A DNA stretch of 8,593 nt. Origin: a virus (taxonomy: Duplodnaviria; Heunggongvirae; Uroviricota; Caudoviricetes). Below are positions 2,649 through 7,746 of the stretch, in pieces. A model generated the notes under the pieces. That model ran no database searches, was not told the origin of the DNA, and saw only the letters and a program-made list of their open reading frames with translations. The first letter of the stretch is position 1. Every line of letters starts with the position of its first letter. The stretch lies in IMG/VR virus record IMGVR_UViG_2713896777_000020. One strand, given 5' to 3'. Made by a program: the position numbers and the translations under genes.

Positions 2649-3407
2649 TCAAGTGCCTTTCCTGGTCCAGCCATATTTTTTGAATGCAGGCGCCGCTTCA
2701 TCGGTTTGTAGCCATTCTGCAAATCGACGGGTTTCATCATTTGCATCCTGACGTACTGTAATGTTCATATCACGCCATATCACGTAGTCTGGCGCTATTT
2801 CCACGACATCACCAATTTCTGGATTACTGGCTGCCCAGTCAGCCCAGGTTATCCAGACATCTGCTCCAGGCTGATTCTCAAGAGCCTTACGTGCAGTTCC
2901 GCTATTGGGCGCATATAAAATAATATTTTTTCGGATTGCGGCGACAGTTTCTATATTCCCTTTACGTCCGGCAATATCTTCCCAGACGCCAGTGCCTGAT
3001 GTATTACTGGTACCACCACCATCATTAACAATTACGCCAATCCCAGGTCTGGTCAGGTCGTCAATACTCCGGATATTTTTAGGATTACCTTTCTTTACCA
3101 GTAAAATACTTTTTCGCAGATAAAGAGGCTGAATATCTTTTTCACTGAAGCTGTCTTTATGGTCCCGAATGATAGCCAGAGCAGATTGTTCTGATGCGCC
3201 AAACAAGATATCTGCATTTTTTTTGGCATCTTCATTCCATTTGTTCTGTGGGCCGTAATGAACGTTCACTATAATACCTGTTTTTTCGGCATAAAGTTTG
3301 GCTGCATCAAGCAAGGCTGTATGCGGGCCACCAGGACCATACAGATTGATATCAGCATAAGCAGCAGAAGACAGGAATATTAAAAAACCTGCCATTATGT
3401 TCCTCAT
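2649..3407 (-). CDS. secreted ModA-like (molybdate/tungstate-type) periplasmic binding protein; orphan moron
   Basis: Track ORF, 252 aa. ATG at 3407 with AAGGAG about 7 nt upstream. N-terminus MRNIMAGFLIFLSSAAYA looks like a Sec signal peptide (AYA then D). ADILFGASEQ resembles ModA ADLFISADQ and the C-terminal FKKYGWT resembles ModA FKRYGFT. Region is AT-rich relative to the flanking phage genes. Confidence 0.8.
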   Translation of the reverse strand: MRNIMAGFLIFLSSAAYADINLYGPGGPHTALLDAAKLYAEKTGIIVNVHYGPQNKWNEDAKKNADILFGASEQSALAIIRDHKDSFSEKDIQPLYLRKSILLVKKGNPKNIRSIDDLTRPGIGVIVNDGGGTSNTSGTGVWEDIAGRKGNIETVAAIRKNIILYAPNSGTARKALENQPGADVWITWADWAASNPEIGDVVEIAPDYVIWRDMNITVRQDANDETRRFAEWLQTDEAAPAFKKYGWTRKGT

Positions 3408-4412: not shown

Positions 4413-5000
4413 TCAAATCATCTTCTCGCGTTGCAGTAAACGATGGCAGCGACTGCACAATGTCCGCCACAGTTTCTGTTTTAATATCTTCCTGTGTTGC
4501 ATCTTTCTGTACCGGTAACGAACACCGGCTGGCTGAGGAAAGGCTTTACCATCGGTTTCCGCTACCGATTCAACTTTCGGCTCTGCTGGTAAATTATCAC
4601 CTGGTATGCAGTAACGAATTTTACCGTTCTGGTTTACGCGAATCAGACGACCTTTGCTGATTGCCATTGCCAGCGTTGAAGCAACTTTGCGGGATGTTGT
4701 ACCGAACAGCGTAGCCAGTTCATCCGCCGTTTGTGGTCCGCGTTGTTCAATCGTCGCGGTTAAATCGCACTCTGAGATTTTCGCTTCTGTTGCCGTGGTG
4801 GTTTCTTCTGGCGCTGGCTGTTCCTGCTGAACGTTGTTATCAGCCACACGCCAGGTGTATACGCTTTTATCAACGAAGCCAGCCTTTTTCAGTTCCCACA
4901 GCTCGTTCAGTACTTCTTCACGACTGATATCAAGTCGCGCAGCCAGCTCTACCGACGTGGCTTTTCCCATCGCTTTCAGTGCGTCAAAAACAGTCTCCAT
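4413..5000 (-). CDS. phage protein with two winged-helix-like segments, in the ren position after P
   Basis: Track ORF; ATG at 5000 with GGAGG 7-8 nt upstream, 33 nt after the P-like stop. N-terminal [30 protein letters not shown] resembles a wHTH. The last 50 or so residues look low-quality, so the 3' end may be wrong. Confidence 0.55.
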
Positions 5001-5033
5001 AAATTTCCTCCCGGTAAAAAATCACTTCTCAAC

Positions 5034-5699
5034 TCAAACAAAACCAGCCGCTTTCCGGCGTTCATATTCCTGTTTCAGCAACTCAATTGGCGTTGGCCCC
5101 GACGGGCGTTTGGGGGCCGCCAGTTGTCGCCGGACTGGCGGAACGCTCAGGCCGTTACTAACATGCTTTGCCCATTTCGTCAGTTGCCGTTCTGCAAGCC
5201 GTTTTAATTCCCCTTCGGTCATCTGGCGCTCAATCCCCTTTGAACGCATCTCGAGGCAAATGTGATACAGCACAGGCTGAGACCACGGGTACTTATCACT
5301 TCCGTCGTATCGCCAGGACTCATTGCGCCAGCGGCGGTACTCCTCCATCACAGCATCCACCGTCAGACCGAATGGATTGGCTCCGCTTTTCGAAATCAGT
5401 GCCACAAACTCAGCCAGGTCCGGAGGCCATGTTTCACCCGCCCGGCAGCGGTCCATGCACTGGCGGCAGACCTGCCGGATTTGCTGCTCAGTCATCGCGC
5501 CAATCTGTGCAATCCAGAGCTTCGAAGGTGCGGCCCCGTTCTTCTGGATCCAGCGGTTCGAATAAACCACCCCCATGAGTTCCCACAGCTTCCAGGCCGT
5601 TTCCGTCGCTGATAAATCCGTTTTCACGTTCCCACTGCTCACGTGCTGCCCGAATTTCCTGAACTGCCCGTGATGCGGTGCCACCTGGTGCTGCTGCAT
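5034..5699 (-). CDS. lambda P-like replication protein (helicase loader)
   Basis: Track ORF, 221 aa. Blocks align with remembered lambda P: MTEQQ (P: TTMEQ), PDLAEFVAL (P: PGQFVAW), YPWSQPVLYHICLEMR (P: YPWKSNAHYWLVTNLY), TEGELKRLAERQL (P: TDAELRRKAADEL). Start uncertain because of overlap with the upstream ORF. Confidence 0.8.
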   Translation of the reverse strand: MQQHQVAPHHGQFRKFGQHVSSGNVKTDLSATETAWKLWELMGVVYSNRWIQKNGAAPSKLWIAQIGAMTEQQIRQVCRQCMDRCRAGETWPPDLAEFVALISKSGANPFGLTVDAVMEEYRRWRNESWRYDGSDKYPWSQPVLYHICLEMRSKGIERQMTEGELKRLAERQLTKWAKHVSNGLSVPPVRRQLAAPKRPSGPTPIELLKQEYERRKAAGFV

Positions 5700-6528
5700 G
5701 GTTTACCCCTTTGCTGACTGGTTTAACCTGCGCCCTGACGTGATTTACGTGACGGGCGAATTTCTGCTCCCACTGAATCTGCGTAAACACTTTCCCCTCC
5801 GCTGCCCAGTAGTCCCGGAAGGCGGCAAGTTCAGCAGGTGTAAATTCTGTCTCCGGCAAAGCCATCCCCCACAACGCAGCCCGTCGTCGAAAATCCCGTG
5901 ACGGATACCAGCTATCGCTCATCGGGAATTTTCCGATGGGTTCGCTCAGGCCATACAGGAATACAGGGGGGGCTGCCTGTAACGACAAAACTTCCTGCTC
6001 ACTGGTCGGAGCACTCTCGCGTGCGTTATGTGTGGGGTTTAGATCTTTGGGTTCCTTTGGGTTCCGTGATCCGTTTTTGGGTGTCTTTGATGGAAAATTT
6101 GGGTGTCTTTGGTTATTTTCCATGCAGCTAAGAGTTCTGTTTTTGGGTCTGTTTTGTGCTGAAACATAACCATTTTCGGTACTGTTTTTATTAACAGCAC
6201 CAATTTTACCCACCTTTAAAGACTCCCGTTTTTGGGTGTATTCAGGCTCGGCAACACTTTCTTCTACACCGATAAGTCGGTACACCACAATTTGCTTTGT
6301 TCTGCCTTTTCTCTCACCGGTATCAACAATTAACCCAATCTCCATCAGGTGTCGTAAGCTGTCCTGCACAGTCTTTTTGTTCAGTTCCGTTACTTCTGCC
6401 AGTGCAGATACAGACGGGTATGCACACAAATCGGCACCGCACATATCAGCAAGCCAGGTCAATACTGACTTACTGGATGAACTGCCGGTTTTCACCTTTT
6501 TAGCCCATCGTAGTGCATCGATACTCAT
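5488..6528 (-). CDS. lambda O-like replication initiator (N-terminal wHTH domain, Pro/Lys-rich linker, C-terminal domain)
   Basis: Track ORF 5488..6603; start more likely the internal ATG at 6528 (MSIDALRWAKK...) with AGGGG about 6 nt upstream. Position immediately upstream of the P-like gene; linker is encoded by the iteron repeats. Confidence 0.7.
   Translation of the reverse strand: MSIDALRWAKKVKTGSSSSKSVLTWLADMCGADLCAYPSVSALAEVTELNKKTVQDSLRHLMEIGLIVDTGERKGRTKQIVVYRLIGVEESVAEPEYTQKRESLKVGKIGAVNKNSTENGYVSAQNRPKNRTLSCMENNQRHPNFPSKTPKNGSRNPKEPKDLNPTHNARESAPTSEQEVLSLQAAPPVFLYGLSEPIGKFPMSDSWYPSRDFRRRAALWGMALPETEFTPAELAAFRDYWAAEGKVFTQIQWEQKFARHVNHVRAQVKPVSKGVNHAAAPGGTASRAVQEIRAAREQWERENGFISDGNGLEAVGTHGGGLFEPLDPEERGRTFEALDCTDWRDD
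6042..6240. repeat. iteron-like direct repeats plus AT-rich stretch: candidate phage replication origin inside the O-like gene
   Basis: Six copies of core TTTGGGT at 6046, 6056, 6076, 6098, 6142 and 6231 (the extended form GTTTTTGGGTGTCTTTG is seen at 6071-6089); AT-rich stretch about 6155-6225. Confidence 0.6.
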
Positions 6529-7051
6529 ACGAACCCCTGGCAGACATTTGTTTATCTGCAAAGTAATATTGGTATTGCTGACGATACGCGTGCTTGAAAG
6601 CAATAGCTTTTTCTATAAGCTCGTCAGTCTCACGTTCCACAACAACTGGATCCGCAAAAAGCAGCCCGGACTCCACCACATCGCCATATTCTTTGTTTAA
6701 CCCGGCGATCATGTACGTAATGCTTTTTCCGTCAGTAATTTCACAATACAATCTGAAATCGCTGATCCGGATAGCCTCCATAATTGCCGGAATCAGCGCC
6801 GTGAATTTGTCACGCTTATCTCTGGTGTCGATAGCTTTCCAGCGTTCGAATATCTTCACCCGGTTAACGCCCAGCGCCCGTTGATCAACCTCGCCATCAT
6901 TAAACGTGACGCGTTGAACATCGATGTTCGGGCGTTCTTTCAGAGCCCAGAATGCTTCCGTGATTAATATCGTCGCCTGCTCCTGTGTCATTCCTGGTCG
7001 GCATACACAGGTATCCAGAGCCTCACAAACCTGTTCAGTGGTGATTTTCAT
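6500..7051 (-). CDS. hypothetical early protein (183 aa), in the cII position after the cro-like gene
   Basis: Track ORF; ATG at 7051 overlaps the dicC stop by 17 nt. No family recognised. Confidence 0.6.
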   Translation of the reverse strand: MKITTEQVCEALDTCVCRPGMTQEQATILITEAFWALKERPNIDVQRVTFNDGEVDQRALGVNRVKIFERWKAIDTRDKRDKFTALIPAIMEAIRISDFRLYCEITDGKSITYMIAGLNKEYGDVVESGLLFADPVVVERETDELIEKAIAFKHAYRQQYQYYFADKQMSARGSYEYRCTTMG

Positions 7052-7262
7052 TGTTCAACCGCCCCGCCCGCTTTGCCTTACGATATTCGTCATAAACTTT
7101 GGGGTCGTACTGAAGTTCCCCGCCGGATGCCTCTTGCAGGCGCATCGCGCGACCTTCAGGAACCAGTTCCCCCCATGCAGCAACGCTTGCCAGCCTAACT
7201 CCTGCGACATTGGCAAGCTTTGTTTTGCTGCCAAAAAACGCTATAGCATCAATTTTCAACAT
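7035..7262 (-). CDS. dicC: DicC-like Cro-type regulator
   Basis: Track ORF, 75 aa. MLKIDAIAFFGSKTKLA...PEGRAMRLQEASGGELQYDPKVYDEYRK matches remembered DicC. Divergent from dicA. AAGGGG before the ATG. Confidence 0.85.
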   Translation of the reverse strand: MLKIDAIAFFGSKTKLANVAGVRLASVAAWGELVPEGRAMRLQEASGGELQYDPKVYDEYRKAKRAGRLNNENHH

Positions 7263-7338
7263 ATCGAACCCCTTAGATTTTCCTAAGGAAACTAGATCGT
7301 AGAGAAACCTAAGTCAAGAAAAATTAGAATTACCTAAT
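7263..7338. promoter_or_regulatory. divergent dicC/dicA promoter-operator region
   Basis: 76-bp intergenic region. Inverted CCTTAG-n6-CTAAGG at 7271-7288 and CCTAAG at 7308-7313. Minus-strand TTGACT (-35, plus 7312-7317) and weak -10. Plus-strand TAGAAT at 7325-7330, 8 nt before the dicA ATG, with no Shine-Dalgarno. Confidence 0.5.
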
Positions 7339-7746
7339 ATGAAAAACGAAACCTTCGGTGCTCGCCTCTTATACAGGCGAAAAAAATTAAAACTGTCTCA
7401 GGCCGCATTAGGTAAGCTGGTCAAAGTGGCTCACGTAACAATTTCTCAATGGGAAAGAGATGAAACACAGCCAGCGGGGAAGAGATTATTCGCACTGAGC
7501 CAGGCGCTTCAGTGCTCGCCGACTTGGCTTCTTTTTGGAGATGAAGATAAGCAACCAGGCGAACCGATCCCAGATAATCAGCCAGTCAATCTGACAGAAG
7601 ATCAAAAAGAGTTGCTTCAACTGTTCGACGCACTGCCTGAGTCAGAGCAAAAGGCTCTGTTGTCAGAGATGCGTGCTCGAGTTGAGAATTTCAACAAACT
7701 TTTTGAAGAACTACTCAAAGCTCGCAAAAGAAGCGCAAATAAATAA
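7339..7746 (+). CDS. dicA: DicA-like HTH (XRE-family) repressor, the cI analogue
   Basis: Track ORF, 135 aa. HVTISQWER, LFALSQALQCSPTWLLFGDEDKQP and NFNKLFEELLKARKR match remembered E. coli DicA. Confidence 0.9.
   Translation: MKNETFGARLLYRRKKLKLSQAALGKLVKVAHVTISQWERDETQPAGKRLFALSQALQCSPTWLLFGDEDKQPGEPIPDNQPVNLTEDQKELLQLFDALPESEQKALLSEMRARVENFNKLFEELLKARKRSANK

Follow-up and report, generated by a model that had tools for sequence, protein, structure and literature searches.

A candidate replication origin made of repeats within the O-like initiator gene of a lambdoid prophage

An origin of replication inside the initiator gene is the textbook arrangement for lambda, P22 and L, and lambda functions with four iterons. 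The annotated iterons of lambda are ATCCCTCAAAACGAGGGA, with an AAATT variant, and begin one codon after the wing of lambda O. Lambda, P22 and L each have their own iterons inside the initiator gene (PMC8022706; PMC7466680), and gene 18 of phage L holds six imprecise copies of an 11-bp word (PMC8022706). The Rac prophage is also reported to have an active origin, oriJ (PMC3945230).

Here we analysed a window of 8593 bp, meaning the whole stretch of DNA, in which an earlier note had seen a candidate prophage origin inside an O-like gene. Sequence comparison supports this reading, through conservation, repeats across the whole family, gene context, and a lambda-like N-domain and word. The array at 6046-6245 probably consists of the binding sites (iterons) of the protein that its own gene encodes, and would then be the replication origin of a lambdoid E. 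coli prophage that is itself defective. As a kind, the lambda-type origin within an initiator gene is already known. This version is apparently undescribed, and no description of the array was found in the literature on this module, its iterons, ydaU/ydaV or the mapping of oriJ.

The initiator gene and its surroundings

The gene that hosts the array, its domains and its neighbourhood are as follows.

5488..6528, minus strand: O-like replication initiator gene, 346 aa, ATG at 6528, from the ORF list
6262..6528, minus strand: N-terminal winged-helix DNA-binding domain (aa 1-89), AlphaFold pLDDT 91.5, H-H-H-H-beta-hairpin
5947..6261, minus strand: predicted disordered linker (aa 90-194), host of the array, pLDDT <50 and no secondary structure in the full-length model
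5728..5940, minus strand: DnaT-like ssDNA-binding domain (aa 197-267), Pfam PF17948, E 9e-17
5034..5699, minus strand: P-like helicase-loader gene, annotated as 5034-5456, homology reaching upstream to ~5534
6040..6050: mosaic junction; DNA homology to Rac-SA53 ydaU/ydaV (92.7%) spans 5001-6048 and ends at the array edge

The O-like protein matches phrog_1032, "replication initiation protein", over residues 1-298 (E 8.8e-91). In PPompW records the gene is labelled "phage replication protein"; its database label is merely "DnaT-like ssDNA-binding domain-containing protein". The domain behind this label scores 61 bits for PF17948 against a cut-off of 25, and residues 194-270 match the DnaT PDB chains 6aep, 4ou6 and 9zbt with E 1e-18 to 1e-19.

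As for the N-domain, Foldseek matches are MarR/ArsR-type winged helices in the PDB and phage "replication protein O"/HTH proteins in BFVD. Pfam HTH_36 reaches 20.9 bits in this part, under the 25-bit cut-off, and 30-35 bits in close homologues. No match to Pfam Phage_rep_O (PF04492) was found in the O-like protein at E <= 0.01, while lambda O scores 123 bits; phrog_678 and phrog_345 are matched by both proteins. An hhalign comparison of the N-domain with the profile of the lambda O N-domain gave a probability of 69% (E 4.6e-5, 52 columns), which suggests a remote profile link of only moderate strength; this and the lack of a Phage_rep_O match weigh against the origin reading. Direct BLASTP of the N-half against lambda O returned trivial matches only, within the iteron-encoded peptides.

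The P-like gene that had been placed downstream is indeed the next one after the O-like gene in the direction of transcription. It matches Pfam Phage_lambda_P (E 1.3e-16), phrog_109 "P-like helicase loader" and, by BLASTP, a 252-aa P-like protein. Cro-like, cII/YdaT-like and cI-like genes make up a control region at 6500-7746. Since the homology to Rac-SA53 breaks at the array edge, the N-domain and the array move together, with the C-domain and P as a separate module.

Composition of the repeat array

The heptamer TTTGGGT occurs exactly six times in the window, always on the plus strand, with starts at 6046, 6056, 6076, 6098, 6142 and 6231. Chance would give 1.46 copies over both strands of the whole window, and none of 200 shuffles reached six. 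Every copy falls within the part of the gene that encodes the linker, and the first four are offset by 10, 20 and 22 bp, exactly as the earlier note had described. The heptamer is clustered, and it is just part of a longer unit of ~18-22 nt, read on the coding (minus) strand, with the core ACCCAAAAACGG, the consensus (A)AAGACACCCAAAAACGG and a short internal dyad symmetry, ACCC..GGGT. Between the DNA-binding N-domain and the C-domain, 7-8 copies or relics of this unit are found at 6046-6245 (codons 96-162). Two of them have a perfect core and a third departs from it at one base; the others are a conserved variant (CCCAAATTTTCC), two copies that have decayed and two half-sites specific to this lineage.

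6224..6245, minus strand: iteron 1, TGAATACACCCAAAAACGGGAG; perfect core at 6226-6237, read Y-T-Q-K-R-E, core invariant in five genera
6199..6217 (approximate), minus strand: decayed iteron copy, AAAGGTGGGTAAAATTGGT, aligning column by column with the intact EPP-1 iteron AAAGACACCCAAAAACGGT
6170..6180, minus strand: weak, decayed iteron, ACCGAAAATGG, read T-E-N-G, aligning with CCCAAAAACGG/CCCGAAAACGG of other genera
6137..6148, minus strand: iteron 3, ACCCAAAAACAG; one mismatch, read R-P-K-N-R, site conserved across genera
6092..6104, minus strand: variant site, ACCCAAATTTTCC, read R-H-P-N-F-P, 22 bp before the last full iteron
6071..6082, minus strand: iteron 5, perfect core ACCCAAAAACGG, read K-T-P-K-N-G
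6056-6062 and 6046-6052, minus strand: two half-sites ACCCAAA, lineage-specific, function doubtful
6160..6224: AT-rich stretch, weak candidate DNA-unwinding region, GC 0.32-0.37 in 60-bp windows

Taken as sites, the six heptamers are thus unequal. Three belong to the full 12-mer core (one with a mismatch) and one to the variant site, but the other two are the doubtful half-sites at 6046-6062, for which no conservation was found in Edwardsiella, Klebsiella or Yersinia. The two decayed copies, at 6170-6180 and ~6199-6217, had been overlooked. The mismatch in iteron 3 is the A at 6138; G is the base of most E. coli variants at this position (corresponding to CGG, with NRPKNG encoded). A homologous variant site stands at the same 22-bp offset in EPP-1, Achromobacter and other homologues. 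In iteron 5, CCCAAAAACGG is invariant in five genera, and EPP-1 reads the site as K-D-P-Q-K-R. The full 12-mer core is confined to the array, and elsewhere in the window there is a single match with 2 mismatches. Lastly, the proposed helical phasing is near-integral in the window but is not a trait of the family. Well-preserved relatives have a 24-bp period, and phasing was dropped as an argument for an origin.

With only two perfect cores, the array is degenerate relative to those of relatives, which counts against the origin reading. It could be the relic of an ancestral phage origin that site decay has made nonfunctional in a defective prophage, a reading that we judge unlikely though quite conceivable. 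All PPompWs appear defective (PMC8112680), two iteron positions of EPP-1 are decayed in the window, the G-to-A change in iteron 3 is private and the AT-rich region is weak. Furthermore, the cores have no excess conservation within E. coli, where their polymorphism is not significantly lower than that of the rest of the linker (7/57 vs 28/153, p = 0.41). On the other side, the initiator ORF has kept its full 346 aa here and in most of 80 related loci. Of 5426 complete E. coli genomes, 908 (17%) carry the module with at least 95% conservation, O157:H7, O145:H28 and O111:H8 among them, and the distal cluster (gene nt 421-495) is nearly invariant among 45 haplotypes. Lambda, moreover, gets by with four iterons. 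The PPompW prophages, described as defective, yet excise and circularise (PMC8112680).

The AT-rich stretch of the earlier note is present, but it is modest, and instead of separating the iterons from P it sits inside the array, points that count against the origin reading. Made of decayed iterons, it falls between iterons 1 and 3, N-terminal to the main cluster. At 6180-6219, the 40-mer of lowest stability in the O-like gene has GC 0.30 and a dG of -47 vs a window mean of -55 (z = 1.8, top 4% of the window), and no strong unwinding element adjoins the main cluster in the window. This last point would suit real protein-binding DNA sites that serve another role, with the origin elsewhere. The sites might autoregulate the early operon, act as a roadblock to transcription, control copy number by handcuffing or bind a different factor; plasmid iterons, too, mediate autoregulation and handcuffing. 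We consider such a role improbable. The position after the DNA-binding domain, the P-like gene and the lambda-like word match the known arrangement of an origin within O. In homologues from Acinetobacter, Vibrio and Providencia a strongly AT-rich 40-mer (GC 0.12-0.22) comes directly after the array, as in lambda. In the window itself we found no other repeat array and no DnaA box (zero matches to TTWTNCACA).

Conservation of the repeats as DNA

The six copies of TTTGGGT fall in codon frames 0, 2, 1, 2, 1 and 2. The Pro/Lys-rich peptides reported before, PKN, PKNG and PKEPK, are all encoded, but so are TQKR and HPNF, and all three frames are used. The spread of frames bears on the idea of words of the C-CCA-AAA type as slippery sites, at which programmed frameshifting or slippage of transcription would take place in the initiator gene. 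CCCAAAA formally fits X-XXY-YYZ in one frame, but with the word in all three frames most copies are out of the slippery register, and we rejected this reading on that ground. It also opens no long alternative ORF, the other-frame ORFs on the strand being short, and the family-wide consensus is far longer than a heptamer and has dyad symmetry. Slippage is the least credible of the readings considered, with next to no chance of being right.

A disordered linker of low complexity, rich in Pro, Lys and Asn, might also produce such repeats as a by-product, in which case they would have no role as DNA. In favour of this are the predicted disorder of the linker and the recurrence of PKNG-like peptides in many homologues. 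However, relatives in Edwardsiella, Klebsiella and Yersinia keep the word as DNA at the homologous positions, and the frame and the peptide differ. Between E. coli and EPP-1, for instance, TPKNGSR becomes DPQKRDP and RHPNFPS becomes TPNFGGK. The viable Edwardsiella phage EPP-1, whose N-domain is 58% identical, repeats this unit six times, in two frames. In the DNA alignment of five genera the cores are invariant, and the spacers have diverged, with the indels that mark the linker region in cross-genus alignments. Invariant columns amount to 36/44 in the core vs 23/152 outside it, in a test that is partly circular, the cores being defined by a pattern present in at least three of the five sequences. 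When the cores are defined from the window alone, identity is 30-34/42 vs 70-91/150 elsewhere, with p from 0.07 to 0.0002. Conservation at the DNA level, beyond what the linker peptide requires, is thus found across five genera; its absence was what the earlier note had named as refuting an origin.

The earlier note had also pointed to related prophages as a place to look for matching iterons, and the repeated word extends across the family. Homologue loci were retrieved with a degenerate DNA pattern for DTGERKGxT. A repeated word (at least three exact copies) is present in the linkers of 58 of 63 homologues, from many Proteobacteria, and among these 58 distant homologues 51 have it in at least two frames. 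Enterics, Vibrio and Burkholderiales share the word CCCAAAAACGG, Acinetobacter has CCCAACAATGG, and some homologues also have the word inverted, as CCGTTTT. Between the clades of these two words no clear-cut distinguishing N-domain residues were found, in a comparison where the CCCAAAAACGG group is too diverse and many homologues are unclassifiable. A scan of viral contigs returned near-identical E. coli-type N-domains only, and no deeper relatives.

The use of several frames, the change of peptide at conserved sites and the inverted copies all go against a by-product of the linker, which is strongly disfavoured and in our view very improbable. What is maintained, the alignments indicate, are DNA elements and not a repetitive peptide. 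The linker peptide would be largely a passenger of selection on the DNA, which would account for the reading of one word in three frames.

Proposed mechanism, distribution and comparison with known origins

If the array is an origin, as seems probable to us, transcription from the cro-side early promoter would supply the initiator. The N-terminal winged helix would bind the ~18-22-bp sites, through the core CCCAAAAACGG with its internal dyad ACCC..GGGT. Several bound initiators may then form an O-some-like nucleoprotein complex on DNA that contains A-tracts and is probably bent, and this complex would destabilise nearby easily melted DNA, the best candidate being 6160-6224. Recruitment of the host DnaB helicase for loading at the predicted origin would fall to the DnaT-like domain and tail at the C-terminus, acting with the product of the adjacent downstream P-like gene.

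These results place a probable origin for a very common replication module of E. coli prophages. They also give an iteron consensus for a wide initiator family, found in enterics, Vibrio, Burkholderiales, Acinetobacter and viable phages such as EPP-1. While the principle is not new, the locus shows cleanly how a cis-element can overprint coding sequence in each of the three frames. In STEC, several prophages of one cell share initiator/iteron specificity and are predicted to cross-activate or compete, which is relevant to the induction of Stx phages.

On a more speculative note, lambda O/ori and the present initiator-iteron pair could be divergent descendants of one ancient cassette found across Gamma- and Betaproteobacteria, and there might be cross-firing between prophages. 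We regard this as rather unlikely. Such a cassette may have kept the recognition word TCCC..AAAAC..GGGA, the linker peptide being merely its translation in any frame. Identical N-domain-plus-array modules reach up to four copies per E. coli genome. With the module in 17% of genomes and in such numbers, the initiator of one induced prophage could thus set off origins in defective prophages of the same cell. If true, the Stx2a phage nested inside PPompW would also be amplified in situ by such cross-firing.

In terms of known systems, plasmid replicons of the RepA/pi/RepE type share with this locus the direct ~20-bp repeats, a winged-helix initiator and AT-rich DNA alongside. Their iterons are intergenic, usually with DnaA boxes, whereas the sites of this locus lie inside the initiator ORF and the window lacks a DnaA box. 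A plasmid-type iteron origin was rejected on these two grounds. In Rac-SA53, the C-terminal DnaT-like half of ydaU and the P-like ydaV are 87-93% identical to those here, but the N-terminal DNA-binding module of YdaU is unrelated, the homology ending at 6048, and no comparable array was found in the ydaU linker.

Gene 18 of P22 and of L follows the same principle, that of divergent lambdoid initiators with their own intragenic iterons. The word of L, TGTCCAACGGA, is unlike the one here, and the partner in P22 and L is a DnaB-type helicase (gp12), not a P-like loader. The Stx phages 933W and P27 are lambdoid prophages of STEC with the origin inside O and six iterons, more than four as here (PMC7466680). 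They have a true lambda O/P and lambda-type 19-bp iterons, in contrast to the different initiator family and word of this locus.

Finally, the likeness to the lambda origin that had been proposed holds for the iteron word, the N-domain and the gene order. It does not hold as a mirrored layout, the AT-rich tract being weak and inside the array here and placed after the iterons, before P, in lambda. The copies are less regular than those of lambda, the spacer between the dyad arms is ~3 bp shorter, and the C-terminal part is a DnaT-like ssDNA-binding domain instead of the P-binding domain of lambda O. Nevertheless, both arrays lie in the linker-coding part just after the wing (codon 116 in lambda, codon 98 here) and both include an AAATT-type variant copy. 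The words are similar in length, ATCCC-TCAAAACGA-GGGA in lambda and (A/T)CCC-AAAAAC-GGG(A/T) here. As in lambda, a P-like gene follows directly downstream, and the N-domain and the array are swapped as one module.

The early region and its repeats

The window matches PPompW at 99.8% identity; this lambdoid prophage is integrated at ompW in STEC O145:H28, and in some strains a Stx2a phage is nested within it. PPompW prophages excise and circularise with mitomycin C, and all were judged defective on account of deletions and pseudogenes among their late and lysis genes (PMC8112680). The O-like gene belongs to an early-right operon of classical type on the - strand.

Table. Genes of the early region
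7339-7746, + strand: cI/DicA-like repressor gene
7035-7262, - strand: Cro-like gene
6500-7051, - strand: cII/YdaT-like gene
5488-6528, - strand: O-like gene
5034-5456 as annotated, homology reaching further upstream, - strand: Phage_lambda_P-like gene
4413-5000, - strand: DUF1627 gene

At 5456-5699 (- strand), the Pfam Phage_lambda_P match and the BLASTP similarity to a P-like protein of 252 aa run upstream of the annotated start at 5456 to about 5534, inside a 221-aa ORF (5034-5699), so the true P-like start may overlap the 3' end of the O-like gene (stop 5488-5490) in another frame. A single profile, phrog_15931, covers the C-terminal half of O together with P. Elsewhere, a sok antitoxin RNA (2311-2460, - strand; Rfam RF01794, 103.9 bits) adjoins a hok/gef-type ORF (2107-2370, - strand), named "gef, phage maintenance protein" in PPompW and partly masked by an N run. 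An SBP_bac_11 periplasmic solute-binding-type gene (2649-3407, - strand), which the PPompW annotation calls Paa/AdfO adherence factor, is cargo within the early region. A 300-nt direct repeat (565-864 and 1034-1333; 87% identity, 469-bp period) gives paralogous small ORFs on both strands, with no Pfam match for those tested, and an N run (about 985-1035) precedes its second copy.

In terms of repeats in the O-like gene, the window contains six copies of TTTGGGT, all on the + strand (starts 6046, 6056, 6076, 6098, 6142 and 6231), against 1.46 expected, and none of 200 shuffles reached six. The cluster is therefore real and not due to chance, and the offsets of 10, 20 and 22 bp agree with the earlier note. 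The word, read on the coding strand as ACCCAAA, is only the most exact stretch of a longer unit.

Table. Repeat copies on the coding strand
Site 1: TGAATACACCCAAAAACGGGAG, ACCCAAA start 6237, perfect core
Site 3: CAAAACAGACCCAAAAACAGAA, ACCCAAA start 6148, one mismatch
Site 4: CCAAAGACACCCAAATTTTCCA, ACCCAAA start 6104, conserved variant
Site 5: TCAAAGACACCCAAAAACGGAT, ACCCAAA start 6082, perfect core
Half-sites: ACCCAAA only, starts 6062 and 6052, not conserved elsewhere

The 12-mer core ACCCAAAAACGG is perfect at 6226-6237 and 6071-6082 and has one mismatch at 6137-6148. Comparison with relatives adds two decayed copies, ACCGAAAATGG (6170-6180) and AAAGGTGGGTAAAATTGGT (6199-6217), which were not visible to the earlier note. 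Spacings of 32, 44, 22, 20 and 10 bp are close to integral helical phasing; the phasing noted before thus holds in the window but is peculiar to its lineage, relatives often having an exact 24-bp period. Two GATC (Dam) sites, 6068-6071 and 6042-6045, flank site 5 and the half-sites; the homologues from Edwardsiella, Klebsiella and Yersinia likewise have a GATC immediately behind the last iteron.

Codon frames and conservation of the sites

The predicted structure of the initiator has a confident winged helix at residues 1-89 (pLDDT 91.5); its structural neighbours are MarR/ArsR-like in the PDB and, in BFVD, phage "replication protein O"/HTH proteins. Residues 197-267 form a DnaT-type ssDNA-binding domain (Pfam 61 bits; PDB DnaT chains, E about 1e-19). 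Between them, residues 90-194 are predicted to be disordered (pLDDT below 50, without secondary structure), and the whole array falls in codons 96-162. The repeats are therefore in the predicted linker just past the winged-helix domain, followed by the DnaT-like domain and the P-like loader.

The six ACCCAAA copies are read in codon frames 0, 2, 1, 2, 1 and 2, giving YTQKRE, RPKNR, RHPNFP, TPKNG, NPK and EPK. A repeat at the protein level would keep one frame, so the array as its by-product is highly improbable and is ruled out by the frames. The same data rule out C-CCA-AAA-type words as slippery sites, which was the least probable reading of all.

Edwardsiella phage EPP-1, obtained by plaque assay, has an N-domain 58% identical to that of the window and carries six copies of the same unit, AAAGACACCCAAAAACGG, in two frames, spaced 26, 33, 33, 33 and 22 bp. 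The last full site encodes K-T-P-K-N-G in E. coli and K-D-P-Q-K-R in EPP-1, and the variant site R-H-P-N-F-P and T-P-N-F-G-G, both through a frame change. Between genera, the DNA of homologous sites is kept whereas the peptide is not.

We aligned the DNA of five genes, from E. coli, Edwardsiella, Klebsiella, Yersinia and an assembly of a sequencing run (P0017), whose N-domains are 39-67% identical. Invariant blocks (ACCCAAAAAC-GG and CCCAAAAACGG) mark the cores at homologous positions, whereas the spacers differ in sequence and contain indels. Invariant columns make up 36/44 of the core and 23/152 of the non-core linker, with cores defined, in part circularly, as the pattern present in at least three of the five sequences. 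With cores taken from the six 7-mers of the window alone, identity to the window is 30-34/42, against 70-91/150 outside (p from 0.0002 to 0.07, depending on the species). Position is conserved for four of the six copies but not for the two half-sites (6046-6062). Frames and cross-genus alignment together uphold conservation beyond what the linker needs, the decisive test of the lambda-like origin proposed earlier. At the level of sequence, the repeats are DNA elements tied to this initiator family.

Homologue family and cassettes

The wing motif DTGERKGxT, written as a degenerate DNA pattern and searched in one genome per species, gave 109 stretches. True homologues numbered 69, of which 61 were long enough; with the window and EPP-1, 63 sequences were analysed. 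In the 375 nt after the wing, 58/63 have a word repeated in at least three exact copies, in 51 of these 58 in at least two reading frames. The array is a clean demonstration, in a very wide family, of a cis-element dictating a linker peptide in three frames.

The unit is close to GAAyAGTCCCAAAAACGGnAC in enterics, Vibrio, Marinobacterium and Burkholderiales, often repeated every 24 bp exactly (Providencia, for example, has four or five copies). In Acinetobacter it is GAAACAGTCCCAACAATGGAAC, the last copy being a perfect 16-bp palindrome, GTCCCAACGTTGGGAC, and the arrays (loci L156, L159 and L126) lie about 75-240 nt after the DTGERKG motif. The word therefore differs from clade to clade, which is what co-evolution of initiators with their sites would produce. 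We sought the N-domain residues responsible and identified none.

The ydaU/ydaV genes of the Rac-type prophage Rac-SA53 are 92.7% identical in DNA from 5001 to 6048, ending at the last repeat. Its YdaU has the DnaT-like half in common with the O-like protein, but the N-terminal half is unrelated and its linker yielded no comparable array. The mosaic breakpoint falls at 6040-6050, and both kinds of initiator have the conserved peptide K(D/E)LNPTH at this junction. In EPP-1 the same N-domain with its array precedes a Phg_2220_C domain, in Yersinia an uncharacterised C-domain. Breakpoint and differing C-domains argue that N-domain and array move as one cassette, with the C-domain and P-like gene as another; such an arrangement has long been known for lambdoid O genes.

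N-domain plus array (query 6030-6530, at least 95% identity) is found in 908/5426 complete E. coli genomes, almost always chromosomal, despite which RefSeq annotates the O-like gene as DnaT-like protein only. With up to four copies per genome, several co-resident prophages share one initiator/iteron specificity, and we predict that these can cross-fire.

The candidate origin compared with lambda

That an origin lies within the initiator gene is a textbook principle, so the array, as a probable new instance of it, will not surprise a specialist. No description of the array or its consensus was found in the searchable literature. By analogy with lambda (PMC7466680; PMC8022706), the N-domain would bind the sites, probably as dimers since these have an internal dyad. 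Several bound initiators would wrap the A-tract DNA into an O-some and nearby AT-rich DNA would open; the DnaT-like domain would bind the exposed single strand, DnaB or both, and the P-like protein would deliver DnaB. A non-origin role of the sites, in autoregulation or handcuffing, is unlikely and would in any case be compatible with an origin.

As for the AT-rich stretch of the earlier note, it is real (GC 0.32-0.37 in 60-bp windows) but weak. Its least stable 40-mer, also that of the O-like gene (6180-6219), exceeds the window mean by 1.8 SD, and AT content is far higher in the intergenic regions of the window. The stretch lies between sites 1 and 3, N-terminal to the main cluster, and no such tract follows the last site because the Rac-type module begins there.

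The stretch consists largely of the two decayed iterons, which fits an ancestral origin no longer working in this defective prophage. Such a relic would also agree with a G-to-A change at 6138 (A on the - strand) in site 3 of the window haplotype, giving CAG and NRPKNR (Arg), whereas the consensus CGG and NRPKNG (Gly) persist in most of 80 related E. coli-type loci. Similarly, across 45 E. coli haplotypes polymorphism in the cores does not fall significantly below that elsewhere in the linker (p = 0.41). However, the distal 75 nt are almost invariant among these haplotypes, and we consider a relic possible but clearly less probable than a working origin.

In Acinetobacter, Vibrio and Providencia homologues a strongly AT-rich 40-mer (GC 0.12-0.22) directly follows the last iteron, as in lambda, and the Acinetobacter layout is much more lambda-like than that of the window. 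The four iterons annotated in the lambda reference record (ATCCCTCAAAACGAGGGA, ATCCCCTAAAACGAGGGA, ATCCCTCAAATTGGGGGA and ATCCCTCAAAACAGGGGG) start at codon 116, one codon past the end of the N-domain. By eye, the word of the window family, (A/T)CCC-AAAAAC-GGG(A/T), has the same arms and AAAAC centre, with a spacer about 3 bp shorter, and the family also has an AAATT-type variant copy. The initiator is not a member of Pfam Phage_rep_O, but both it and lambda O match phrog_678 and phrog_345 through their N-terminal 160-170 residues. Aligned with hhalign, the two N-domain profiles give 69% probability (E 4.6e-5) over HTH and wing. Both results lend moderate, independent support to remote homology of the N-domains. 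Judged from these sequence likenesses, a deep kinship of the array with ori-lambda is likely.
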